This document shows, piece by piece, positions 15,849 through 39,850 of a DNA stretch of 64,000 nt. Under the pieces are notes generated by a model. That model made no database searches and had not been told where the DNA came from. It was given only the letters and a program-made list of their open reading frames with translations. The stretch covers positions 32,001-96,000 of IMG/VR virus record IMGVR_UViG_3300028569_002801. One strand, 5' to 3'. The DNA is from a virus. Numbering within the stretch: position 1 is the first letter of the stretch; every line of letters starts with the position of its first letter. A program made the translations under genes and the position numbers.

Positions 15849-17684
15849 TTAGAATGTTGAACCGCTTAATTGTTTCCATCCACTGTTATCCTTATAATAA
15901 AGGTAATTATTATCCCAAGTTATTGAACCTGGTTCACCTGTAGTGTCAACACTACTTGTTGGTGTGTATGAGGTACTAATTACAAAATTAGGTACGTAAG
16001 TTGTATCCGAATTAATGGCATTAATACCTGTTCCTCCTAATACAACGCTTCTAGATCCACTTACTGTGTTATTTCCACCCCCAATAATTGCGGACATAAA
16101 TGAATTAACAGTGTTTCCTGAACCACCAATAATTGCAGATTGTTTAACATCATCAGACGGAGATAAAAAGGTTATTTCATTTTCATATCCACCAAGTATC
16201 GCCCCACCATCAGTATCACCACTAGTTACTATATTATTCATTCCACCTAATGATACTGATAAGGGTCCGTTAGACTCATTATTATCTCCGTGTGTAAAGG
16301 ATACAATACCGTAAGAAACCGTCCCGACACCACCAGCATGTGAATTATCACCACTCGCTAATGTTCCTTTATTTTGTGAATGTGAATATTGTCCCGATGC
16401 AATTGTAAAGTCTCCTTCGGCGTGTGAGCCAATACCTATGGCATTACTTCCTGAACCTTCACTATGTGAATAATCACCATAGGATGTCGTTAAAAACCCT
16501 TCAGCATGTCCATAGATACCATATGTATACGATTGCCCTTCTGATGATGAATACAAACCAATACTATAAGAACCAGATCCTTTGGATGTTGATCCGTCAC
16601 CTATTGCCTGTGTTCTTTGTCCTGTTGCGTTTGCATTACGTCCCCCAAAAACTTGATTACCTCCCCATGATGATGGAGGATTTGTATCTGACATAATTGC
16701 TTGTGCTCCTAATGTATCGACTGATGTGTCATATAAATAAACTATAGTATTTGTACCATCAAATGTTACCGCACTAACACTAAATACAGATGACGGGTAT
16801 AATGAAGAATATGAAATATCATCAAAAAATACAAATGAAGTTGTTCCTGTCGTAAAGTTTAGTGAAACGTCACTATATGAAGAATCTAAAGTACATATCC
16901 CTGCGGTACACCCTGTTAATAAATAACCGTCATTTGATCCTGTTTTGGTTAGAGTGCCATTTGCATGTGAGTAGTTCCCATAAGTTCTACTACCGTTACC
17001 CAATGAAAATGATAATGTTCCATAAGCGTTAGAACCGTTAGTTTGTGTTTCATCCCATATTGAGATGGGTGAACATCCGTGAACGTTTCTTACATAAAAA
17101 TCAACAAAACAATTTCCTGAAGATGATCCAGGTAGATTATAGTATGTTGTTGCACTTATGGTATTTGCGGTTAAACCATTTGTAAAATTAGTCGGACCAT
17201 TAACTGTTCCTCCTGTAAATACACTACTACCACCTGTAGTTAAACCCGTTACCGTGAACGTACCTCCTTGATTATTTGTGAATGTAATCGTGTCAATACT
17301 AAACGTTCCTCCTGTAACATATGTGTCTCCTGTAATTTGTACTCCGTTAACAAAAAGGGTACTAGCGGATAGTGTATTAGCCGTTACACCATTACTAAAA
17401 ATAGTCGCACCTGGAACTGTACCACCCGTAAATACGGAACCTGAAGTGACTCCCGTTATATTTACCGTACCTCCGGTACTATTAGTGATAGTTATTGTAC
17501 CTGTACCACTATTATATGTTCCGCCGGTAATAGTCACAGAAGGGTATGCGTCAAACACTTGTTGTATTGATGCTTTATAAGATGACCCCGCAGGATCTTG
17601 TGATGTATCTCCTGTTATTACGATGTGAAGTAAATCGTCTACGGTTACTCCACTCGCTAAGGTTCTTGTTGTTAATTTTGCCAT
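15849..17684 (-). CDS. tail fibre/adhesin with YadA-head-like repeats
   Basis: TGGT shaft repeats, 14-aa SHAEG/SHSEG repeats, GGxxN-SAII repeats, fibre-tip-like C-terminus. Confidence 0.75.
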   Translation of the reverse strand: MAKLTTRTLASGVTVDDLLHIVITGDTSQDPAGSSYKASIQQVFDAYPSVTITGGTYNSGTGTITITNSTGGTVNITGVTSGSVFTGGTVPGATIFSNGVTANTLSASTLFVNGVQITGDTYVTGGTFSIDTITFTNNQGGTFTVTGLTTGGSSVFTGGTVNGPTNFTNGLTANTISATTYYNLPGSSSGNCFVDFYVRNVHGCSPISIWDETQTNGSNAYGTLSFSLGNGSRTYGNYSHANGTLTKTGSNDGYLLTGCTAGICTLDSSYSDVSLNFTTGTTSFVFFDDISYSSLYPSSVFSVSAVTFDGTNTIVYLYDTSVDTLGAQAIMSDTNPPSSWGGNQVFGGRNANATGQRTQAIGDGSTSKGSGSYSIGLYSSSEGQSYTYGIYGHAEGFLTTSYGDYSHSEGSGSNAIGIGSHAEGDFTIASGQYSHSQNKGTLASGDNSHAGGVGTVSYGIVSFTHGDNNESNGPLSVSLGGMNNIVTSGDTDGGAILGGYENEITFLSPSDDVKQSAIIGGSGNTVNSFMSAIIGGGNNTVSGSRSVVLGGTGINAINSDTTYVPNFVISTSYTPTSSVDTTGEPGSITWDNNYLYYKDNSGWKQLSGSTF

Positions 17685-17708
17685 TTCTTTTTTATAATAT
17701 ATATAAGT

Positions 17709-17990
17709 TTATTGAAATTCATATGGTACTCCATCCATAAATTCAAATAAATCTGAATTTTGGAATTGTTTATAGTATATTTCAGTATCACAATAAACAC
17801 ACCCGTTATCATCAATTATTTTTACAACGTAACTAGTGTATGTTTCATATATCGCGGGTAATGTAAATGTGTATGGTATTGTTGGTGTTGTGTCTATGTA
17901 TTGACAAGTACCATAACAGGTGTCACAAACCCATATATCGTATGGTGATGTTCCTGATGTTACTGAATTAATTGTTACTATTGTTGACAT
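17709..17990 (-). CDS. small single SprB/Ig-like module protein (putative fibre adaptor)
   Basis: SGTSPYDIWVCD...VKIIDDNGC plus C-terminal FQNSDLFEFMDGVPYEFQ; paralogue of 21689..21976. Confidence 0.7.
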   Translation of the reverse strand: MSTIVTINSVTSGTSPYDIWVCDTCYGTCQYIDTTPTIPYTFTLPAIYETYTSYVVKIIDDNGCVYCDTEIYYKQFQNSDLFEFMDGVPYEFQ

Positions 17991-17994
17991 AATT

Positions 17995-19791
17995 TTAACA
18001 GTTTCCGTTTGGTGTGCATCTGAATGTTAACTTACCGTTACCGTCAACCTCAAATATTTGTGATATTGCATTACCACTTTGGTTGATAGGTACTTTTATG
18101 TATGTTAAACTCAAAGGTATTGTTAATGAACTATCTTCGTAAGCATATACTCCTGTTTGTATTGTATTCACATTAAATGATGTGAAGAAATTACCCACGA
18201 CACCAAAATTAGTGAGTTCACAAATAGGACAAGAGAGTGAAAATTCTCCTGATGCTCTCCATTCTTTATATTTTGGGGTCGGTGTTGGTTCAGGAGCTAA
18301 ACATTCTAAACAAGTAACATATGTTGTTGCAGTAGTCGCAGTAAAAGTATCTTGTGTTACTGATATAAATCCTGATGGTGGTGTATAACCCACATAGTTA
18401 CCGATATAATTATAACAATCCCCTGTGGTTTTTAAGATATCACCAATCAATACGTTTATCGGTGGATATGCGTTTTGTATAATCATGGTATTATTAGTAC
18501 AAGACGTGAATATAAATTGTGTTCCCATAGGGTATGATATTGGTATTGGTAACGCACATTCGGTATCGTCCGTACAAGTATTTCCCGATAATATCGTAGT
18601 TGTTCCTGTTACACAAGTAAATGATACGGTATTCTCTTGAGCACAAATACCAAAACTTGTATTACCCGTTATTATTAATGTTTCAGAGTTTCCTGAACAA
18701 CCAACCCAATTTACAGTACAACCACTTTCACTTGTTACCGTATAACAATAACATTGTGGAGTTGGTGTAGGTGTTGGTGTAGGTGTCGGCGTTACACAAA
18801 CCGAACAATCTGAATAAACGTCTAATACTTGTATTAAGTTTCTATTTGAAGATGCGGTTGTTTTACCGATATACGTTACACACTGTATTTGATTTGACGC
18901 ACTTCCGTATAAAAGTGCTAAGAATGTAGTTCCCGTACTAACAACAGACCCTGAATATGTTATTGGTTCTGTAATATAATAATGTTCACCCGTATCACAG
19001 TCCAATAAGTCTTTAACTGACGAACAAACAAAATCTCCGCTATCAACAACAAATGTTACTGTATCCGCCGATGGTGTTACAGGGCAATATGATGGTGTTG
19101 GTGTCGGAGTTGGTGTCGGAGTTGGTGTTGTCCCTGAAGTGGATATCGTTATTGTGGCAGTAAACGCACTACATATATCTGGTGTTGGTGTGGGAGTCGG
19201 TGTAGGTGTAGGGGTGGGGGTTGGTGTCAGAGTAGGTGTCGGGGTTGGAATATCACATTCTAACAATACGTCAAAATCTAAATCTGAACACGGATCTGTA
19301 GGAATTGGTGTTATTGAACATATTCCTTCGTACATTATGGTACTATCTAAATCGGGACATCCGTATGTTGTTGGGTTCTGCCCAAAAAAATCACAGGTTC
19401 CACCTAATGAATTACTTAAACACCAATTTGTTCCGTTAAAAAATATGTATCTCGGATTAGTTCCTCCTGTCCAATAATAATCCCCGCCATAATTACCTTC
19501 TAATGTATATGTGCCGTTATACCCACTATATGAACTAATAGGTATTGATAAGCAATAGTTATTTTGACAATACCCACTACAAAGTGAGTCATTACAGTCA
19601 GTAACCAAAGTAGCAACACCATCGATTGTAACGGTACTATTTACCAATGACCCAATAGTATAACAACCATCAGGTATATTTGTGTCACCCGTAATATTAA
19701 AGACTAAACCGAGCGTTGTCGAATAACTCCACCCACTTACACTAAAGTTTACACTACTATTTAAACAACTTTCTATGTTAACTAATGCCAT
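17995..19791 (-). CDS. Cys-rich modular protein with four (Thr-Pro)n linkers, putative virion appendage
   Basis: Small Cys-containing beta domains separated by PTPTPT tracts. Confidence 0.75.
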   Translation of the reverse strand: MALVNIESCLNSSVNFSVSGWSYSTTLGLVFNITGDTNIPDGCYTIGSLVNSTVTIDGVATLVTDCNDSLCSGYCQNNYCLSIPISSYSGYNGTYTLEGNYGGDYYWTGGTNPRYIFFNGTNWCLSNSLGGTCDFFGQNPTTYGCPDLDSTIMYEGICSITPIPTDPCSDLDFDVLLECDIPTPTPTLTPTPTPTPTPTPTPTPDICSAFTATITISTSGTTPTPTPTPTPTPSYCPVTPSADTVTFVVDSGDFVCSSVKDLLDCDTGEHYYITEPITYSGSVVSTGTTFLALLYGSASNQIQCVTYIGKTTASSNRNLIQVLDVYSDCSVCVTPTPTPTPTPTPQCYCYTVTSESGCTVNWVGCSGNSETLIITGNTSFGICAQENTVSFTCVTGTTTILSGNTCTDDTECALPIPISYPMGTQFIFTSCTNNTMIIQNAYPPINVLIGDILKTTGDCYNYIGNYVGYTPPSGFISVTQDTFTATTATTYVTCLECLAPEPTPTPKYKEWRASGEFSLSCPICELTNFGVVGNFFTSFNVNTIQTGVYAYEDSSLTIPLSLTYIKVPINQSGNAISQIFEVDGNGKLTFRCTPNGNC

Positions 19792-19854
19792 TGAATTATT
19801 ACTTTATTATATAAATAATCAAAAGTTTATTTTATTGATGGTTTGTTTTTAAAA

Positions 19855-21051
19855 TTATAAACTAAAGTCAATTCTGTTTACCCAATTACCTTCATTATCG
19901 TTTACCCAATACACCCATTTAACAGGGGTTTCTGTCGTTTTTAGTTTAACGTTTAAATATTCCTGATAACTGTACATGTCTTGTCTATGTAATACATTAC
20001 CTAACTCATTTTCAATTCCTATATATATAAATTTAAAATTTTCAGTATAAGGTATGTAAAGTTTGAACTCATATTCAATTTCCTTTAATTCGTACCAATC
20101 TGTATTATCGTTCACCGGTGGGTTTGTTCCTTTTATGGTTTCGGGATGTAACTTTTTATTTTTAAAGTTTATTCCCGCATAATTTTCATATTGTGTGTGT
20201 GTTCTAACGTCACCTAACCCATAAACCCCTAAAGCTATATTGTTATCCTCTTCTTGTAACATATGTCTTAATCTACGTTTAGAGTCGTTATCCATTTCCC
20301 ACCATTGTTTTTCAACAATACCATTATTTTTATTTTCTTGATTAAAGTCTGTCCAATGTTTTGTTCTACCTTCTCTTGTGTATTCATGCCAAACCACAGT
20401 CTTATGTGGGTGAAATAAATCGTAACCTAACGTATATGAACGAATAGATAAACTAATTTCATCACCAGCAAAATAGATATTAGGGTCATACTTATATTCT
20501 TCACAATGTTTTCCGATTGTAAAAAAGAAATGTCCACTAACAAATCTTGCGGGGATTGGTTTATCTAATGTTTGCCAATTTGGTATTGCGTGTGGTCTAA
20601 AAAGGATTGTTCCTCCCGGTGTGAAGTTAGACGCGACCATCATATATGGTTCAACATTTAATAATTGGTTATCTGATGGTCGGTACATTCCGGCATATGA
20701 TGTGATGATTGGTTTTTTTGAACCTGTTATATTCATCATTTCAATCAATTCCACATCCCAATCTTGTAAAAATCTATGATGTGAATCTAATTGTATGGTG
20801 TATTCTTCACCGTCCCATAATTTTTGAATTTCAGAACGAGCCCAACAAAGCCCTTTACTTTCACTCCAATGATAATCTAATATTTTAAATCTTTCATCAT
20901 TTGTGAATTCTTCCATCGATTCAGTTTCATCACGTTGCCAACAAATTCCAAATGTTAAATTTTCAGGGTGTTTTGCTTTATTAATACAATCCCTAATGGT
21001 TGGTAATAACTCAGGATCTCTATAAGATGCGATTTGTACAAATATTTTCAT
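19855..21051 (-). CDS. GT60-family polypeptide GlcNAc-transferase (Gnt1/Gnt2-like, PF11397-type)
   Basis: IFVQIASYRD, SKGLCWAR, GEEYTIQLDSHHRF..DWD (DxH), YDPNIYFAGDEISLSIRSYTLGYDLFHP...WHEY. Confidence 0.88.
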   Translation of the reverse strand: MKIFVQIASYRDPELLPTIRDCINKAKHPENLTFGICWQRDETESMEEFTNDERFKILDYHWSESKGLCWARSEIQKLWDGEEYTIQLDSHHRFLQDWDVELIEMMNITGSKKPIITSYAGMYRPSDNQLLNVEPYMMVASNFTPGGTILFRPHAIPNWQTLDKPIPARFVSGHFFFTIGKHCEEYKYDPNIYFAGDEISLSIRSYTLGYDLFHPHKTVVWHEYTREGRTKHWTDFNQENKNNGIVEKQWWEMDNDSKRRLRHMLQEEDNNIALGVYGLGDVRTHTQYENYAGINFKNKKLHPETIKGTNPPVNDNTDWYELKEIEYEFKLYIPYTENFKFIYIGIENELGNVLHRQDMYSYQEYLNVKLKTTETPVKWVYWVNDNEGNWVNRIDFSL

Positions 21052-21091
21052 ACAAATAAATTAGTTTTTTTTTCTTTTTTGTAAATCTTTA

Positions 21092-21667
21092 TTAACTTGA
21101 AGTGTACTTAATCTTCATTCCTAAAACATAAAGATTAGTATCATTTTGAAAAACACTTAAACCAAAAACATTATTTGATGTTATTCCAGACATATAAGGT
21201 AAAACATCCAATGATGTGAATTTATTGATATTATAACTATATGTCTGTCCTGTCGTTATTGTTGTGGCACTATAAAACGAATTTACGGGTCCGTATTGTA
21301 CGTTTATATCAGTAGAAACATTACCACTAAATGTTGGTATTGTTACCACTTCAGCGGATATCATAGAAGATAAATCGTTTGGAATTAATCCATTTATATA
21401 AACAGGGTCGGTACCTGCATTACAGGTACCAGCATAAAAGTTACCAATATAAGTAGGATTTGTTTCTGAACCTTTAAAGAAAATCTCTTTTATTTGATTA
21501 GTATTACCACTAAATATAGTACTTAATTGTTGTAACTCAACTTTATATGATGACCCGTAAAGGCTTTGTGACGTATCTGCAGTTGTTACAATATGTATAA
21601 TTGTAGTCGGAGTAATCGCCGATGATTGAGCTAATGTTCTATCTGTTAATAATTGGTATGTTGGCAT
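21092..21667 (-). CDS. short fibre/spike protein sharing its N-terminal anchor with 15849..17684
   Basis: LTDRTLA...IHIVTTADTSQSLYGSSYKVELQQL versus LTTRTLA...LHIVITGDTSQDPAGSSYKASIQQV. Confidence 0.7.
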   Translation of the reverse strand: MPTYQLLTDRTLAQSSAITPTTIIHIVTTADTSQSLYGSSYKVELQQLSTIFSGNTNQIKEIFFKGSETNPTYIGNFYAGTCNAGTDPVYINGLIPNDLSSMISAEVVTIPTFSGNVSTDINVQYGPVNSFYSATTITTGQTYSYNINKFTSLDVLPYMSGITSNNVFGLSVFQNDTNLYVLGMKIKYTSS

Positions 21668-21688
21668 AGTTTATTTAATAAATATTAT

Positions 21689-21976
21689 TTATTGGAAAAT
21701 ATAACCTACTCCGTCCATAAAATTAAAATATATATCATTTTGAAACGCCTTTTGGACCTCACAATTAATAACTGTCGAGTACACACATCCATTTGTATCA
21801 ACAATTCTTAAATAAAGGTAATTTTCGTTTGGAAAAAAGTCATCAGTATCAAATATAATATTTGGTGGTATAAAGGTACTCCCTGAAACAAAAAAACAAG
21901 ACGTGTTAGTTGAGTCACATATAAAAATATCATATGGTGGTTGTCCGCTCGTTACTCCTGTTATTTCTACGTTCAT
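21689..21976 (-). CDS. small single SprB/Ig-like module protein (putative fibre adaptor)
   Basis: SGQPPYDIFICD...LRIVDTNGC plus C-terminal FQNDIYFNFMDGVGYIFQ. Confidence 0.7.
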   Translation of the reverse strand: MNVEITGVTSGQPPYDIFICDSTNTSCFFVSGSTFIPPNIIFDTDDFFPNENYLYLRIVDTNGCVYSTVINCEVQKAFQNDIYFNFMDGVGYIFQ

Positions 21977-21990
21977 ATATTATAAATACT

Positions 21991-22560
21991 TTAAGGGCAA
22001 GAAGGTAAATCGGTTACCACACCGGCAGTAACTTCTGCGATTGCATTATATGTTGGTGAACCACCTATTTTAACTAAAAAGTATCCTGTTAATAATGTTG
22101 GTGAACACCCAACATTATTAGAATATAAAATAGAACCGATTTGAGGTTCACTTTCATCAAGATACGCCAAAAAAGCCGCATTAACGGCACAAGTACCACC
22201 TGTAACACAATTAAATGCGGTACAGGCACTTAAAAATGAAGTATAAAAGTATCCCGTAATATTAGTTGAACTACCAAAAGGTGTGTAGTATGGATGTACT
22301 GTGCTTGGACCACAAGTTGGTGTCGGAGTTGGTGTAGGGGTTGGGGGTGGGTCATAACAAGAAACTAATTCAAAGTATTCACATCCTGTTGAATCAATAG
22401 TTTTAACCATTAATGTATTCGCACTTGAATAGAAGGAATTAAGTGTATATGTCCCTCCTGTTGTACTTGTTAAATAACAGTTATTTCCATATTCATCACA
22501 TAGGTAAACACTCAATGGTGGTGTTCCCCCTGTTGTTCCTGATATCGTAATAACACTCAT
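21991..22560 (-). CDS. SprB/Ig-like module + PT linker + Cys-containing tip domain
   Basis: GGTPPLSVYLCD...VKTIDSTGC then DPPPTPTPTPTPT. Confidence 0.7.
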   Translation of the reverse strand: MSVITISGTTGGTPPLSVYLCDEYGNNCYLTSTTGGTYTLNSFYSSANTLMVKTIDSTGCEYFELVSCYDPPPTPTPTPTPTCGPSTVHPYYTPFGSSTNITGYFYTSFLSACTAFNCVTGGTCAVNAAFLAYLDESEPQIGSILYSNNVGCSPTLLTGYFLVKIGGSPTYNAIAEVTAGVVTDLPSCP

Positions 22561-25034
22561 TATTGATAAACTAATGTAAACCCCTCTTCTGTTATCATAA
22601 AATAACTATCTTCAGTTAATATTATAAATGATTGACTACAATCGTTACATACTACCTCATATTCTATTTTTAATCTTAAATAAAATTTACAATCACCTAA
22701 AGGATCAACATCACCAACACATTTTGAAATAATTTCAAATGTATTTGTTAATAAATCAATAGTAAAACTTTGTATGTTCGGTATACTACCTAAAATACCT
22801 TCGATTGTTGATTGCCAAAGAGTGTCTTGTGGAATATCATTTAGTGTTGTTGCAGTATAAAATGGTACAGTATATATAGTATCTCCCGATTCACAATCCG
22901 TATATACCAAGAAATCACCATTTTCTGTTGTAATTGTAAATACGTCCTCAGTTAAAATAAAACACGTATCACCAGATCCTGGACAATCAATTTCTATTTG
23001 ACAACTAAATACCGCCCCACTAAAACTACATCCGGTATATCCCGAAATAATATCAATATACCCCTCATTTAACATTTCCGATAAACCTCTTTTAGTTCCA
23101 ACAGTAGTCGTAAAAGTACTATTACAAATATTAAATAACTGATAAGATGTTGGAGAGATACCGTTACAATCTATTGTAAAATCTTGTATATCGTAACAAC
23201 CATTACTATCAGTTATTTCAACATAATAGTTTCCAGCGGATAAACCACTTACAGTTGATCCCGTTTGTCCGTTACTCCAATTATACGTAAAAGTTGGTTC
23301 TCCTTGATATATTACTACGGAAGCCGATCCGTCATTTCCATTAACACAATCTATTTTTTGTATGGAAGTTAAAAGTTGTCCTCCTGTTGTTATTGTAAAA
23401 CCTGTGGATACCGCACAACCAACACTATCAGTGACGGTTATCGTATAATTTCCTGGTAGTAAATTATTATATGTTATTCCTGTCGATGTGGTATCTATTA
23501 GGGTGTCTCCGTTACTTAATACATAATCTAAAACTCCCGTATATCCTGAAAATACCTCAATAACCGCAACACCGTTTGGTTCCCCACATGTTGACCCGGT
23601 AGTTGTTGCACTAACAATAAATTTTTGAGTAGATGTTATATTTAATGTTGTTGTATAAACACAACTTGTTCCTGAACCTGAAATTGTTAATTCATATGTA
23701 TCATTTTGTAAGTTAGTAAAACTATTAGTTTGATTAAGACTTGTATTTTGATAAACGGTGTTACCACTTAAACCTGATAAAGTGTATGTGTAATATCCTC
23801 CAAGCCCTGCAATTTGCACATCTATTTGTCCATTATTCTGATTGCAGTCTGAGTTGGTAACAATTATGTCTACCACATTAAATCCTCCTACGGGACTTAG
23901 AAACCCACTTAATGTTGTTTCACAAAAATTGGCGTCTCTTACAACAACTTGATAAGTTCCAGCAGCAAGGTTTGTTAATGTGAACACGTTTGATAATGTA
24001 TACCCAACTTGGGCGGTAGAAGCCGAATAATAGAAAGGAGCGGTACCTCCAGTTAAAAAATACGTCAGACTACCATCAGATGCGAAACAACTTGGTGTTG
24101 ATGCACTTAATAACCCTATACCTAATGGATCAGCAGCACCTACAAATTCACTTTTAGTTACCTCACAACCATTAATATCTGTTACCGTACAAGTATATAC
24201 TCCTTGTGTTAATCCCGTAATTAATTGTGTGGTTTCTCCATTACTCCACAAATACGTATAAGGTCCGGTTCCCGTAACTCCTGTTACCGCCAATTTACCT
24301 TTATCAATAACACAATTAGATGTATTCACCTTCCAAAAACCAAAATCTAAAGAAGTACTTGCAGATATTACCGCGTTTTCAGTGTTAGCCGTGGTACCAC
24401 CTGAATCAAAAACAGTAGCATAATAAATACCACTAGGTAATCCGTTAAAATCATATGGTAAAGTTCCTGTTGTTTCTACAACGTAAGGAACACCATCTTG
24501 ATAAAGAAGAATAGTATATGGGGCACCTGAAGATGTTGCACTTATAGTTAAAAATCCGGTATCTTGTCCACAAGTAGTTCCTGATGCGGTAACTACATTT
24601 GCCTCAAAACATCCCGTTACATTAACATTAACATATAATTCATTATTTTGTAAATTAAGAGTATCATTTATTCTGAACACATAAGTACCTCCTGTTAGCC
24701 CTGTAAATGTTATAGGAGAACTACTTGTTTGAGCAGTTAAAGTTCCCGGAATAATATTATCAATTGTGTATGGGGCAACACCACCATATGAAGTGAAAGT
24801 CACACTACCTGTTGCTGCGGAGCAAACCCCCGTAACTTGGAATCCGTAACTAAGTGGTCCTGATGTACATGTTTCTGTACAAGTTACCCCTGTAGCAATA
24901 TAAACCCCTCTTGCCGAACCAGAATATGATTCATCTATACATATACTTTCACCAAGTGAAACTCCGAATTGGTATAATCCACAACAGTCTACATATTCAT
25001 AAACACCATCCGTTAATCCTGATACACAAGCCAT
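22560..25034 (-). CDS. multi-SprB-repeat virion protein
   Basis: About seven repeats such as GTGPYTYLWSNGETTQLITGLTQGVYTCTVTDINGC; two LTED...TE motifs. Confidence 0.8.
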   Translation of the reverse strand: MACVSGLTDGVYEYVDCCGLYQFGVSLGESICIDESYSGSARGVYIATGVTCTETCTSGPLSYGFQVTGVCSAATGSVTFTSYGGVAPYTIDNIIPGTLTAQTSSSPITFTGLTGGTYVFRINDTLNLQNNELYVNVNVTGCFEANVVTASGTTCGQDTGFLTISATSSGAPYTILLYQDGVPYVVETTGTLPYDFNGLPSGIYYATVFDSGGTTANTENAVISASTSLDFGFWKVNTSNCVIDKGKLAVTGVTGTGPYTYLWSNGETTQLITGLTQGVYTCTVTDINGCEVTKSEFVGAADPLGIGLLSASTPSCFASDGSLTYFLTGGTAPFYYSASTAQVGYTLSNVFTLTNLAAGTYQVVVRDANFCETTLSGFLSPVGGFNVVDIIVTNSDCNQNNGQIDVQIAGLGGYYTYTLSGLSGNTVYQNTSLNQTNSFTNLQNDTYELTISGSGTSCVYTTTLNITSTQKFIVSATTTGSTCGEPNGVAVIEVFSGYTGVLDYVLSNGDTLIDTTSTGITYNNLLPGNYTITVTDSVGCAVSTGFTITTGGQLLTSIQKIDCVNGNDGSASVVIYQGEPTFTYNWSNGQTGSTVSGLSAGNYYVEITDSNGCYDIQDFTIDCNGISPTSYQLFNICNSTFTTTVGTKRGLSEMLNEGYIDIISGYTGCSFSGAVFSCQIEIDCPGSGDTCFILTEDVFTITTENGDFLVYTDCESGDTIYTVPFYTATTLNDIPQDTLWQSTIEGILGSIPNIQSFTIDLLTNTFEIISKCVGDVDPLGDCKFYLRLKIEYEVVCNDCSQSFIILTEDSYFMITEEGFTLVYQ

Positions 25035-25060: not shown

Positions 25061-28000
25061 TTAAGGACAAACCCCCATGTTTATTGCTGATACAAATCTT
25101 GGAGATGTACTTGTTGGTATTGTAGTTGAGCAAACATTAAATGTTCCTCCACCTAAAAATGAAGTAGTCGTCCCAACCCCACTACAGTTATATGTGGTAT
25201 AAGCTCCTCCAGTTGGACTAAACGTTACTGCCCACATATATGTCACGCAAGGTGTAGGGGTTGGTGTAGGTGTTGGAGTTGGAGTTGGCGTCAAAACTGT
25301 TTGTTGTGAACAATTTATTTGTAAATCAACCCCTATGTTAAGATATAAGGTTTTACTTGTAAAATCGTCGTAACATGTTGAATTACTAACTACAAGTGTA
25401 CTTCCAGCCAAATAAAAATTTAATCCGTAATTGTATAATTCAACTAAATATGTATTAACCGCATTTACCAAATCAGTGGTTGATGGGTAACCACCAATAC
25501 CATACCCTGTATAAAATTGTTCTTGTACTAAAATTTGTGAATCTAACCTACAGTCAATATACCAATTAGTAACTATACTATTAATATCACAATCACTCTG
25601 TGTGAATCCACTATTAGTTAAAACGTTATTTAACGCATAATTCAATATTGCTGCCGGATCGGTTTTTACATCACATTTTAATGTCTGATCAATACAATCA
25701 TAACTAAATGGTTCTCCGTTATACGTACACGGAATACAAGAAACAGGAATAAATGTACAACCTCTTTGTCTTCTCCAAACAAACTTTTGTCTATGGAAAA
25801 TAGAATTTTCCATTTTTTGTCCTGTTAACCATAAAGTGGTTCCTGGAACTACTTGTTCTAATAGTCTTTGCCAATGATCACCTAAACCTAAAGTATAGTC
25901 TATCATTTTTTGATATGTAAACTTATTAGAAGGTATTCCTACAGTTTGATCAGACTCCAAATATCTCCAATAAACTGATTGTAACGTAGGGTAACCTCCC
26001 GTTTTACCATCAAATATTGTTTGTCGATTTCTAACATTAATGAAGTTATTATAAAAACTTTGAGCGAACTCAAAGAATGTTTTTTCTTTTGGTTTTGGGT
26101 TAATAAATGTCCAATCTATATTACCAGGATATGGGTATGGTGCCGTCAATCCTGAATTTGGTATAGGGTATCCGTACTTTACAGACATATCCCATATATC
26201 ATAAGTAATACCTTGACCCATGTTAGTATATAACTCAATATTTTTAGAATTAATTACTAACCTATCATCACTAACAGTATAATCTACCCCATTAAAATTT
26301 GACCCGTCTTTTCTATTCCCCGTATCATTAACTGCCCAAGATTTTTGATTATCACTTATCTTAGTTAACGTATACCCTTCTGCAATATCAGGAAAATCTC
26401 TAAACCTATCCATATATTCTTGTCCATATGTGAATGGTTTTAATGATGATATTAAATATGGGTTGGTTGGGTTAAAGGATGAGTTTACAGAGTCAGCCTC
26501 TTGATTTGATCTATGTTCAGGACTTGTCTCAAACCATCCAGCCCCTTTTTGGAAGAAGTTGTCGTCTGTAATTGCGGGACTTTGGGGGTACCCATCAGAA
26601 TCAACTCCGTAATCGTTTAATGTCGTTGTTATTAAATTTATAACCCCACTTGTAGTATATCCTGTGTAAATCACACCCAATAAACTAAATGTATTAGCCG
26701 GATCAAAAACAGGTGTCTCTACATATGTTGTCCCTCCAGAAATTTGACAATACTTTTCGTAAAAATCATTATAATTTATTTTAGTATCAGCCAAATAAAT
26801 AACTTCATTAAACTCTAATAATGCTTCAGGGGCACCTATAAATCTCATAACATATTCCAAAGATTGTCTAGTCCCCTTTGTTCTAAACATGTGTGCGGAG
26901 TTTAATATTATATTTCTATAGTATTGATAGTTTAACTCTGTTGGTGTGTCTGAAACTGACTGCCCAGGAAAAACTTGTTTAGCGTTTGGATCAAATACTG
27001 AATTTAAAAACCCTTCATTTGTTATTGGTGAGATGTCTGAATTAATCCCTAATGTTTGAGCTAAATTTGTGAGTAGTTGTGAAGGTATATCATTACCTAC
27101 TTGGTAATTTACAGAGTTCATATATGCTAACGCATCAATAAACTTTTTAACTTCATCAAAACTTCTACCGTATATTTGTAATACCTTTTCAATTTTTTGA
27201 TCATCAGTATCAAACTCTTTGAATGATCCTGTAATTAAAAATCTACTTATTAAATTTGTTTTATATTCGTCTAATTTTTCAGCAATACTCTGTATTTGAG
27301 ATATATATTGTTCAAATTTAGTACTATTAATATCTAAGTTCCAATACTTGTCTATCGGCCAAGTTACTTGTTTTGTAAATAAAGTATATTTACCTGCCGA
27401 ATCGTAATCAGGATATGTAAATTTAGCACTGTATTTTGGATACACACTTCTATTTAACATAAAATCTTCAACCTCATCAAAGTTATCTAAAAATACCTTT
27501 TCTGTTGTTTCATTATTTAATTTTATAACTAAATTAAAAGTTGATGCACTTTGTCCGGGAAACATATCCCCTTTCACTGTTAATGTAAGAGTACCCCCTG
27601 TCATATTCTCAACAGGAATCATATCCGTTACTTTGTATTCTGTACTAACATCTCTAAAATAAACGGCATAACTTTCAAAGTTATTAGTCATATCCCTAAA
27701 TGGACTAACAGTTATCGGTCTAGTTAATATGTTTCTAGCGGCGTTTTCAGAATAATCAATACTAAATGGGTTATAGATTAAACCAGTATTAATATCAAAA
27801 GTGGTTTCATCGTTTTTTCTATCATAAACAATATTAGATGCAGTATTTCCTGTATATAATCCTGACGTTTGTCTTGGATAAACCTCTAAAGCCGCAGGGA
27901 AAAAATTTATTACCTTTATAATTGAGGTTGACATTCTTTTCTGTAGGGAACCATACAACGAAAAACTAGTGATTTCCGATATATCAAAATTTGGGTAAAC

Positions 28001-28240
28001 TTTAAAAGTCTTTTCAATAATCCTTTTTACCTCTTCAATATTATCTATTTTAAGGTTTTCTAAAGTATAAGGATTAGAAAATATACCAGTGTCAAATTTT
28101 CTATTTGTCTTTTCATATATTGCACTAGTAAACTCAAAATTACCTTGCGTCAAACCTCCCCCATCCACAATTTGGAATCCTACAAGGTTATCAGAAAAGG
28201 TTTTAACCCCACCAGGTGGAAAAAATATTTTATTTGCCAT
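25061..28240 (-). CDS. large virion structural protein (baseplate/tail-associated) with C-terminal PT linker and Cys domain
   Basis: YYRNIILNSAHMFRTKGTRQSLEYVMRFIG resembles the P2 gpI/gp7-like KGT wedge motif; structural cluster context. Confidence 0.65.
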   Translation of the reverse strand: MANKIFFPPGGVKTFSDNLVGFQIVDGGGLTQGNFEFTSAIYEKTNRKFDTGIFSNPYTLENLKIDNIEEVKRIIEKTFKVYPNFDISEITSFSLYGSLQKRMSTSIIKVINFFPAALEVYPRQTSGLYTGNTASNIVYDRKNDETTFDINTGLIYNPFSIDYSENAARNILTRPITVSPFRDMTNNFESYAVYFRDVSTEYKVTDMIPVENMTGGTLTLTVKGDMFPGQSASTFNLVIKLNNETTEKVFLDNFDEVEDFMLNRSVYPKYSAKFTYPDYDSAGKYTLFTKQVTWPIDKYWNLDINSTKFEQYISQIQSIAEKLDEYKTNLISRFLITGSFKEFDTDDQKIEKVLQIYGRSFDEVKKFIDALAYMNSVNYQVGNDIPSQLLTNLAQTLGINSDISPITNEGFLNSVFDPNAKQVFPGQSVSDTPTELNYQYYRNIILNSAHMFRTKGTRQSLEYVMRFIGAPEALLEFNEVIYLADTKINYNDFYEKYCQISGGTTYVETPVFDPANTFSLLGVIYTGYTTSGVINLITTTLNDYGVDSDGYPQSPAITDDNFFQKGAGWFETSPEHRSNQEADSVNSSFNPTNPYLISSLKPFTYGQEYMDRFRDFPDIAEGYTLTKISDNQKSWAVNDTGNRKDGSNFNGVDYTVSDDRLVINSKNIELYTNMGQGITYDIWDMSVKYGYPIPNSGLTAPYPYPGNIDWTFINPKPKEKTFFEFAQSFYNNFINVRNRQTIFDGKTGGYPTLQSVYWRYLESDQTVGIPSNKFTYQKMIDYTLGLGDHWQRLLEQVVPGTTLWLTGQKMENSIFHRQKFVWRRQRGCTFIPVSCIPCTYNGEPFSYDCIDQTLKCDVKTDPAAILNYALNNVLTNSGFTQSDCDINSIVTNWYIDCRLDSQILVQEQFYTGYGIGGYPSTTDLVNAVNTYLVELYNYGLNFYLAGSTLVVSNSTCYDDFTSKTLYLNIGVDLQINCSQQTVLTPTPTPTPTPTPTPCVTYMWAVTFSPTGGAYTTYNCSGVGTTTSFLGGGTFNVCSTTIPTSTSPRFVSAINMGVCP

Positions 28241-29148: not shown

Positions 29149-29181
29149 TTTTTTATTTTATAAATAGTTTATATTGTTTTT

Positions 29182-38011: not shown

Positions 38012-39850
38012 TTATGAAAAGTCTACGGTTTTTAGACTCTTAACTCTCACTTTAATGTCCTTGTTATTAAATCTAACTTGGTACACTTGATCGGGTTCTG
38101 CAAATATTGTATCGTCAATTAATGCAATTTCTCTTGTTGTTTTATCAAGATATTTTTGAGAAGTTTCAGATGAAGAGTATTGCCCACCAACTTTATTATA
38201 AACCTTTAAGTCTGATAGTGTTGATACCCCTGCAACATTTTGTATTAACCTTCTTACATCTGAAACGTTTACATTTTGTCCCAATTCTCTATTTCCTGGC
38301 TCCATATAGTTGGAGACGGAATTGATAATCTCAGTAATCACTTGTCCTTGGTTTCTATCTGATTCCATCACCACATAAATATCAAATTCAAGATCAATAA
38401 CTTTAGCAACGTCTATAGAGATATAATCATTAATCATTCTATATTTTGATAGGTATGTCGCTAAATTGGATTTTAAATTATTAGATACGACTTGTGTTAA
38501 TTTACCGTCAGTATCATAAGATAATATTTGGATTTTAATTTTATTGTTATTTTCAGTTATTGAAACCTTTGCTGGTGCTCCGTATTTACCAGGCATTGTG
38601 TCAATAATAGATTTGTAGTCATTTACTGTTACCGCCCTTTTTTGTGCGGCAAAATTAAATGTAACCATATTTCTAACTTCTTCGGTTGTTGGTGGATTTG
38701 CTCCACCTATTGCTGCAGTTACATTATTAATTGCTAATGATTGTAATACATTAGTGTTAACGATATCAGAAGGTCCCGTTAATGCAAAATCTATTGTCCC
38801 CACTTGATTTATAACACTGACACCTACATTAGTCGCCAATCCACCACCAATTCTATATTGTACAAATATAGTTGTACTTGGTTGTACTGTTAAACCTAAT
38901 CCTATATTATTTTGATAATTTGCTAAATCTAATTTAATACCGTTTCTTGCAAAATCAGCAAGTTGTTGATTTGGTGTCGTTGTTCCTCCACCAAATTGTA
39001 CTTTCATAAACCCTTCAGGTGTATACTCAGTAATGAATCTATTTTCTGTTTTAATATACTTACCAACCTTTACCCCGGCTTTGTCCGTTGGTTTTGTTAT
39101 ATCTTCAATAAATACAGTATCTTCGGCTAGAGCGTCGACTTCATACCATCTATTCTGAGAACTTAAAAAATCCCCGTATGTTGGTATGTTAGGATAACTT
39201 GTCCCGTCTTTTTGTATAATTGATGTTACCCCTAAAACGTTTCTTTCAGGTAAAAAAAAATTAAAAAATGGAACAACGTCAGCTGGATTAATAACTCTTT
39301 TAAATACTTTTGTAGTTCCATTAACTACTACCTCTCTTTTTGTAATAACGTAATTTATAATTTTATTATTAGCGTCAAAAGTTGGTCTTTTTGTTCTGTT
39401 TACAAATCCTTCATTATTATATTGTGTTGAGAAGTCAATGTCGTAAACTGTTTCAAATGTTGTCCCCGCACCATTAAATTGTGATCCAGCACGTAAGATA
39501 CCTAAATATCTATAATCCTCACTATCACCAAGTGGTGGTACAGTAATAGAAACATCAACCACAGCGACTGAAGGACGATAACCCGGTATTTTTAAACCAT
39601 AAGTTCTTGCTATGTTATATATAGAAGATCTTTGTTGTGCATATTGTAAAACCGTTTCTTGTATACTTCTGTCTATATGGAAATGTAAGTTATCGGCAAC
39701 TGCCGCATTTAAATCCATTAATACTGAAAACACAGAAGCGTCGTTAAAATTTTGTACTAACTCAGGATAATACTGTTTTGTATAATTTATTAAATCCTGT
39801 CTTAGACCCTGAAAGTCCCTATTAGTATAATTAATTTTTTGATTAGCCAT
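38012..39850 (-). CDS. baseplate wedge subunit (T4 gp6/baseplate J-like)
   Basis: INYTNRDFQGLRQDLINY, ARTYGLKIPG, YRIGGG, AAIGGA...QKRAVTVNDY. Confidence 0.88.
   Translation of the reverse strand: MANQKINYTNRDFQGLRQDLINYTKQYYPELVQNFNDASVFSVLMDLNAAVADNLHFHIDRSIQETVLQYAQQRSSIYNIARTYGLKIPGYRPSVAVVDVSITVPPLGDSEDYRYLGILRAGSQFNGAGTTFETVYDIDFSTQYNNEGFVNRTKRPTFDANNKIINYVITKREVVVNGTTKVFKRVINPADVVPFFNFFLPERNVLGVTSIIQKDGTSYPNIPTYGDFLSSQNRWYEVDALAEDTVFIEDITKPTDKAGVKVGKYIKTENRFITEYTPEGFMKVQFGGGTTTPNQQLADFARNGIKLDLANYQNNIGLGLTVQPSTTIFVQYRIGGGLATNVGVSVINQVGTIDFALTGPSDIVNTNVLQSLAINNVTAAIGGANPPTTEEVRNMVTFNFAAQKRAVTVNDYKSIIDTMPGKYGAPAKVSITENNNKIKIQILSYDTDGKLTQVVSNNLKSNLATYLSKYRMINDYISIDVAKVIDLEFDIYVVMESDRNQGQVITEIINSVSNYMEPGNRELGQNVNVSDVRRLIQNVAGVSTLSDLKVYNKVGGQYSSSETSQKYLDKTTREIALIDDTIFAEPDQVYQVRFNNKDIKVRVKSLKTVDFS

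Follow-up and report, generated by a model that had tools for sequence, protein, structure and literature searches.

Two gene pairs in a viral genome fragment as candidate copies of a head-to-tail joint for exchangeable tail fibres

A 64,000-nucleotide stretch of viral DNA, hereafter the window (bases 32001-96000 of the 114.7-kb IMG/VR record IMGVR_UViG_3300028569_002801), carries twice a pair of adjacent genes in which a small protein, referred to here as the adaptor, is followed by a fibre-type protein. Both adaptors end in the same kind of C-terminal peptide (tail A), and both fibres begin with the same kind of N-terminal segment (anchor A). The sequence comparisons presented below lean, by a modest degree, towards the view that both pairs are copies of one head-to-tail joint between proteins, on which exchangeable tail fibres are mounted.

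A first-pass annotation of the window had proposed four open reading frames (ORFs) forming these two pairs, and all of them were present on the minus strand. In pair 1, adaptor 1 (95 aa; 21689..21976), delimited from its ORF and homologues, comprises a predicted six-strand body resembling immunoglobulin (Ig) and fibronectin type III (FN3) domains (aa 1-74) and the C-terminal tail, the last 20 aa of which (21692..21751; K.FQ...F.FMDG..Y.FQ) were placed by the consensus of 61 tails. A spacer of 21 nt (21668..21688), containing two TAA stops and the AT-rich motif ATATTTATTAAATAAA at 21670-21685, separates it from the putative fibre or tip protein 1 (191 aa; 21092..21667), in which anchor A occupies aa 1-48 (21524..21667), as defined by the fibre-fibre alignment, and is followed by a C-terminal domain of 140 aa. 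In pair 2, adaptor 2 (93 aa; 17709..17990), recognised in the same way as adaptor 1, has an Ig/FN3-like body and tail A at 17712-17774, and precedes, after a gap of 24 nt also containing TAA stops, fibre 2 (611 aa; 15849..17684), with anchor A at 17556-17684, Gly/Thr-rich repeats and a C-terminal WDNNYLYYKDNSGWKQL motif. The resemblances claimed within each type of gene were confirmed. The two adaptors align along their whole length with 39% identity (E 8e-18), both ending in FQN...F.FMDGV.Y.FQ immediately before the stop, and the two fibres share residues ~4-48 only (23/42 identical, 55%; E 2e-9), no other significant alignment being found between the remainders of the 191-aa and 611-aa proteins beyond the ~45-aa anchor. 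A six-frame motif scan of the window retrieved the tail motif and the anchor motif exactly twice each, at both pairs, and profile searches of the whole 114.7-kb record likewise retrieved two tails and two anchors.

A total of 190 related viral loci of IMG/VR (labels beginning with L) were collected in three scans, which used as seeds the body of the adaptor, the anchor and one divergent subclass of anchors, and never the tail; all counts of tails and anchors given here are distinct cases after duplicate removal, and the pairing spans ~100 related viral contigs. It had been expected that the two motifs would stay adjacent in relatives, and this held completely in one direction: all 84 distinct tail-A proteins found in the 190 loci were followed by an anchor-A gene, which began 10-51 nt (median 24) after the tail-A stop. 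In the other direction it held for the majority only, tail A being present upstream of 86 of the 98 distinct anchors. Independent occurrence of the motifs, which the first-pass annotation had named as the observation that would speak against its proposal, was therefore one-sided, since tail A was never seen without the anchor and the anchor was seen without tail A.

The further expectation that tail type and anchor type co-vary in relatives was borne out, as both change together in natural swaps. One class of adaptor body was found in three states, with no mismatch: tail A with anchor A (23 cases), tail Q with anchor B (5 cases), and no tail with no fibre (9-10 cases), in which the body is continued by a Cys-rich C-terminal domain and a glycosyltransferase gene follows directly. 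Tail Q (YLLQE.GFYILQEDGF.I..) terminates Ig proteins of 92-95 aa and also a 564-aa SprB-type protein, and anchor B (M.DL.IS.LP) opens collagen-like or C1q-like fibres with PHROG tail-fibre matches (L027:1741-2834, L016:4919-5994, L030:6958-9659, L103, L110, L113, L012). Tail A, in turn, was carried not by the ~95-aa adaptors alone, as it also terminates proteins of 184, 285 and 896 aa, the shortest of which consists of an Ig body, a Pro-Thr linker and the tail. The longest (L046:1980-4670) is the ortholog of the window's 824-aa protein, with 56% identity over ~770 aa; the 896-aa ortholog ends in a tail A that is 81% identical to that of adaptor 2 and is followed by an anchor-A fibre, and the window copy ends in another tail (tail T), its next gene encoding an Ig-like protein. 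Judging from these sequences, the pairing of tail and anchor is probably more than synteny.

The adaptor family comprises 99 clusters at 90% identity, all annotated as hypothetical and none matching Pfam, and neither adaptor of the window had a match in Pfam (E<=0.1) or PHROG. When adaptor 1 was modelled with AlphaFold2 and 89 homologs, residues 1-74 formed a six-strand beta-sandwich with a predicted local distance difference test score (pLDDT) of 60-78, and across the adaptor-alone and fusion models the body scored 60-85. The VIA wide search with this model returned generic FN3/Ig matches (Z 6-7) over residues 1-75, and Foldseek against the PDB returned only weak rows (E>0.08) of the Ig, FN3 and type IX secretion system C-terminal domain kinds. 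In the adaptor-alone model, the last 20 residues formed a separate hairpin (83-85/91-93) that was not packed on the body, with low confidence (pLDDT 42-51); as modelled, the tail stands outside the Ig fold of the adaptor. The consensus of the 61 tails, C-x(4-6)-K-x-F-Q-D-x3-F-x-F-M-D-G-x2-Y-x-F-Q-stop, contains two F(Q/M)DG-type turns. A search of PDB sequences with the tail profile built from these 61 sequences found no chain at E<=10, the same search with the adaptor profile found no match, and searching the literature with the tail strings brought up no relevant paper.

The anchor proved to be both widespread and strictly terminal. Its profile retrieved 495 clusters (50% identity) among 1.84 billion proteins, always within residues 1-56 of proteins of 58-1285 aa, and both tail A and internal copies of the anchor were absent from the 150 anchor clusters listed. 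In the AlphaFold2 fusion model described below, the anchor was predicted as a hairpin and a short helix (pLDDT 55-72). The bodies beyond it are diverse: at the fibre-1 position, relatives encode proteins of 265 to 1624 aa, among them a 993-aa protein of a close relative that matches a PHROG tail-fibre family (9e-24), and some of the downstream proteins match PHROG tail-fibre, collagen-like and C1q-like families. Fibre 2 matches PHROG 25468 (3e-14). The first-pass annotation had called this 611-aa fibre YadA-like, a label that is weakly backed, as no Pfam match was found at E<=0.1 and the adhesin-head matches obtained for aa 334-480 with phmmer against the PDB were non-significant (BpaC, E 0.11; Hep_Hag, E 0.21) in a region of high compositional bias. 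The 140-aa C-terminal domain of the 191-aa protein (21092-21514, minus strand) had homologs in two clusters only among 5.8 billion sequences, and no PDB sequence match was found for the 191-aa protein.

It was also observed that the C-terminus of the 611-aa fibre (15852-15920, minus strand) ends in WDNNYLYYKDNSGWKQLSGSTF, a motif that ends 5 of the 150 anchor clusters listed. This motif recalls the T4 fibritin foldon; a PDB sequence search with this C-terminus gave no match.

The mechanism proposed from these data is the following. The C-terminal hairpin tail of the adaptor, probably in three copies, would bind the product of the next gene, the trimeric fibre, at its leader and anchor, and the Ig-like body of the putative adaptor would tie the fibre to the periphery of the baseplate, so that gene order would mirror assembly order. 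New receptor-binding bodies or tips could be gained by recombination just after the anchor, and each of the two positions in the genome, or slots, would keep its own tail and leader variants. In the earlier version of this idea the adaptor C-peptide was described as a socket for the fibre, and a 20-residue hairpin would be a plug rather than a socket. What stood of the modular docking originally inferred is the portable anchor on many unrelated bodies, the adjacency and the matched swaps; what is less well backed is the wording of the socket and of the YadA-like fibre.

Several observations weigh against this proposal. First, 12 of the 98 distinct anchors have no tail A upstream, of which six follow a ~900-aa protein with another conserved end and six have no recognisable tail upstream. 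Second, in two lineages among the latter six (L085 and L104) the adaptor body stops right after its last Cys, without a tail, and an anchor fibre is nevertheless the next gene. Third, one orphan tail Q was found (L098), and the class-level swaps represent few independent events, in counts that ignore phylogeny. Fourth, tail and anchor lie ~24 nt apart, and linkage alone could therefore explain their co-inheritance and co-replacement. Finally, docking was modelled with AlphaFold2 as a natural same-frame read-through of pair 1, in which the TAA was replaced by Gly, leaving a 7-residue linker, and a 31-row paired alignment of relatives with both genes in one frame was used; the body was predicted with confidence, the tail scored pLDDT 33-47 and no confident docking was obtained. 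This result neither supports nor refutes docking, because a single chain joined by so short a linker was modelled, whereas actual fibres are probably trimeric.

The strongest competing explanation, which we regard as unlikely on the whole, is the following: the tail would be a self-association tag, for instance a foldon-like trimerising hairpin, the anchor would bind the Ig body, the baseplate or a third partner, and both would co-travel as neighbours in a fibre module that recombines cassette-wise. The two tandem xDGxx-aromatic turns of the tail and its modelled hairpin off the body agree with such a tag, as do the anchors without tail A and the lack of a confident tail-anchor contact in the fusion model. 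Moreover, the anchor cores of one genome evolve in concert, which a shared partner would lead one to expect: in ten contigs with both slots their similarity is 0.62 inside a genome and 0.55-0.56 from one genome to another (0.56 for the same slot), which suggests either gene conversion between anchors or a shared third partner. However, a self-association tag does not account for tail A always lying beside an anchor-A gene (84/84), even on unrelated bodies, nor for the downstream N-terminus changing along with the tail type. The foldon-like character itself is our presumption from a likeness to T4 fibritin, and the tail profile matched neither fibritin nor any other solved structure in the PDB, nor any Pfam family. 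This explanation can overlap with the head-to-tail joint, in the case that fibres dock on a trimeric hub of tails.

It was considered, as a decidedly improbable alternative, that the small protein is a non-structural assembly chaperone whose tail holds the fibre N-terminus transiently during trimerisation. The size of the protein, its constant place beside a fibre gene and its disappearance when the fibre is absent would suit such a role, but the genes of known fibre chaperones usually lie behind the fibre gene, the same tails terminate large SprB-repeat proteins of structural type (564-896 aa), and the adaptor body is an Ig/FN3-like domain like those of its structural neighbours.

That the junction is conserved as an element of the DNA (promoter, recombination site or programmed read-through) is hardly credible, despite the AT-rich motif ATATTTAT[AT]AA conserved in the spacer and the same frame of 29/65 pairs, because pN/pS (nonsynonymous relative to synonymous differences) is 0.2-0.3 with synonymous sites near saturation and amino acids conserved in both tail and anchor, most pairs are not in one reading frame, double TAA stops are frequent, and a promoter in the spacer would leave the conservation of the coding sequence unexplained. 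Specifically, pairs of slot 1 gave a pN/pS of 0.26 for the tail (pS 0.71) and 0.21 for the anchor, with pS of 0.58-0.71, from which the conservation of tail and anchor is read as acting on the protein rather than on the DNA.

The possibility that adaptor and fibre are expressed as a read-through or frameshift fusion was examined apart and rejected, since the reading frames differ in 36 of 65 adaptor-fibre pairs and are the same in the other 29, and double TAA stops are common.

As for the spacer, an AT-rich motif, ATATTTAT[AT]AAATAAA, precedes fibre genes and some other genes, at a distance of 3-25 nt from the start codon. On the minus strand of the window it occurs at 21670-21685, 19803-19818, 29152-29167 and 1719-1734, with 10 matches in the window against 3.65 expected, and most relatives conserve it between adaptor and fibre gene. 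It may serve as late promoter or in the start of translation; in sequence it is similar to the T4 late promoter TATAAATA.

Returning to the head-to-tail joint, ten contigs carry both slots (for example L038/L054, L018/L100 and L031/L090), and in these each slot has its own kind of tail and of fibre start (residues 1 to 7-11): F[NI]F tails accompany MP.Y[QN].LTDR leaders, and FEF tails accompany MA.LT..R leaders. With respect to this contrast between slot-specific tails and leaders and genome-specific anchor cores, the window itself is a mixed case. Acidic tails tend to go with basic leaders (Spearman -0.39, p 0.003, with phylogeny ignored).

A broader and more tentative reading, which we hold to be doubtful, is that of a gene-order-encoded assembly code running from tail to head, in which several orthogonal C-terminal hairpin tails would each specify the N-terminal module of the next protein, so that fibre chains and branches would self-assemble in order and their tips would be swappable. 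Under this reading, the joint may have come from one small domain that was divided over two genes. The pairs of such a code may be tail A with anchor A, tail Q with anchor B, tail T with an Ig-like domain, and the ELIHNC end with the KQRLTD-type anchor. Tail T ([FI]ILTE.G..[IL].TE.G..LV[FWY]) is also present on ~95-aa Ig-like proteins of relatives (L004:2339-2626, L014:5695-5982 and others), and the gene after it starts with an Ig-like, adaptor-type domain in 13/13 distinct cases, a pairing that could be explained by conserved synteny alone. The fourth pair concerns six anchors with a KQRLTD-type leader (M.KQRLTD), which are preceded by proteins of ~870-970 aa ending in ...DWEEGGPFYN[KQ]ELIHNC (L119-L123 and L131; ORF ends at ~2955-2965); these proteins share a ~100-aa region (E 5e-17) with the window's 1059-aa protein (25061-28240). 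A chain of three genes was observed in L004, in which an Ig protein with tail T is followed by an Ig protein with tail A and then by an anchor-A fibre.

Two groups of known systems resemble the arrangement described here. In phage T4, the receptor-binding fibre gp37 is bound in its N-terminal region by gp36, a small trimeric protein of 221 aa, and both are encoded in the series of genes 34-35-36-37, whose order is that of assembly (PMC3004832). As in the window pairs, consecutive genes encode consecutive fibre parts and the distal part is variable (PMC3004832). The difference is that the upstream protein is here a 95-aa Ig/FN3-like domain with a 20-residue C-terminal candidate determinant, and that the joint occurs twice per genome and with several tail classes. 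No Pfam or PHROG family of the gp36/gp37 kind was found in the adaptors or fibres, and a tblastn search of 50,697 phage records yielded no genuine match. In the anchor-branch systems (gp37 of K1-5/K1E/SP6, gp66-gp63.1 of G7C, and Klebsiella phages KP32/KP34/Menlow/PhiK64-1), a conserved N-terminal peptide docks exchangeable receptor-binding proteins (RBPs) to an adaptor or to a first fibre (PMC6872550), and a further report presents docking through the Klebsiella 'conserved peptide' as validated (PMC13352976). A conserved N-terminal anchor on otherwise unrelated bodies, the feature by which RBPs of these systems are recognised, was likewise found here, and, as for the anchor here, their exchangeable RBPs carry a short conserved N-terminal peptide that differs between phage groups. 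In contrast, the docking site in those systems is a T4gp10-like domain, whereas the candidate partner here is a peptide at the C-terminus encoded by the gene directly before the fibre. The anchor, with ~45 aa, is also longer than theirs, and the phages are uncultured jumbo phages with probable hosts among the Bacteroidota. Pfam and PHROG searches detected no T4gp10-like domain in either adaptor, no profile comparison with gp10 itself having been made.

A third likeness is that of the adaptor body to the SprB repeats (PF13573) and to Ig/FN3-like surface proteins of Bacteroidota, with which it has in common the strand signature Y.V.I.D.NGC and an Ig/FN3-like model; the adaptors had no Pfam match to PF13573 at E<=0.1, and hhalign against the SprB-repeat neighbour gave a probability of 10% over 15 columns. 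By sequence, the window pairs fall outside both the T4 gp36-gp37 and the anchor-branch systems, and their logic is close to that of gp36-gp37. A short C-terminal peptide of the upstream gene acting as fibre partner, in several matched classes, is not described in the literature searched; the concept itself is known.

The rules of tail-fibre attachment decide how phages exchange host-recognition parts, and they are known only from a few cultured model phages of Proteobacteria. The rule described here can be read from sequence, as a tail at the end of gene n and an anchor at the start of gene n+1, and it holds across a large group of uncultured aquatic jumbo phages that probably infect Bacteroidota. 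If the binding is true, fibres and their mounting points would become annotatable in metagenomes, the presence of ~500 fibre bodies on one handle would be explained, and a very small natural connector of 20 + 45 residues would be available for studies of phage-host recognition.

The 114.7-kb record has a CheckV completeness of 38%, and relatives of the window phage are found in contigs of up to ~292-300 kb; the record is therefore taken as a fragment of an uncultured jumbo phage. The window has a G+C content of ~0.31 and nearly all its genes on the minus strand, and a gp6-like baseplate wedge gene (38012-39850) is the first of a series of structural-type genes that extends down to ~12000. SprB repeats were recognised by Pfam in several members of this series, from which a host among the Bacteroidota is inferred; the host is thus probably a member of this phylum. 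Aquatic jumbo phages predicted to infect Flavobacteriia were described in 2025 (PMC12619734). Among isolated phages (INPHARED, 50,697 records), no relatives were found by DNA, anchor or adaptor, tblastn included, and these deposited genomes contained neither the tail motif nor the anchor motif. The anchor was not found in one representative genome each of 185,579 prokaryote species, and matches in the ESM Atlas were to viral hypothetical clusters only.

Upstream of pair 1, and on the same strand, lies a 189-aa protein (21991..22560) that is a third paralog of the adaptor body over its N-terminal ~70 aa, continued by a Pro-Thr linker and a Cys-rich domain and without a tail. It is the gene that follows the 824-aa SprB-repeat protein (22560..25034, minus strand; Pfam SprB, 1e-17), whose tail T, FIILTEDSYFMITEEGFTLVYQ, is at 22563-22628. 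Between the two pairs, a glycosyltransferase of the N-acetylglucosamine type is encoded (19855..21051, minus strand; PF11397, 3.5e-66; PHROG 24687, 6.5e-97), which lies outside the proposed joint. Long (Pro-Thr)n linkers were observed in the proteins at 17995-19791 and 21991-22560 (minus strand), beside this glycosyltransferase.

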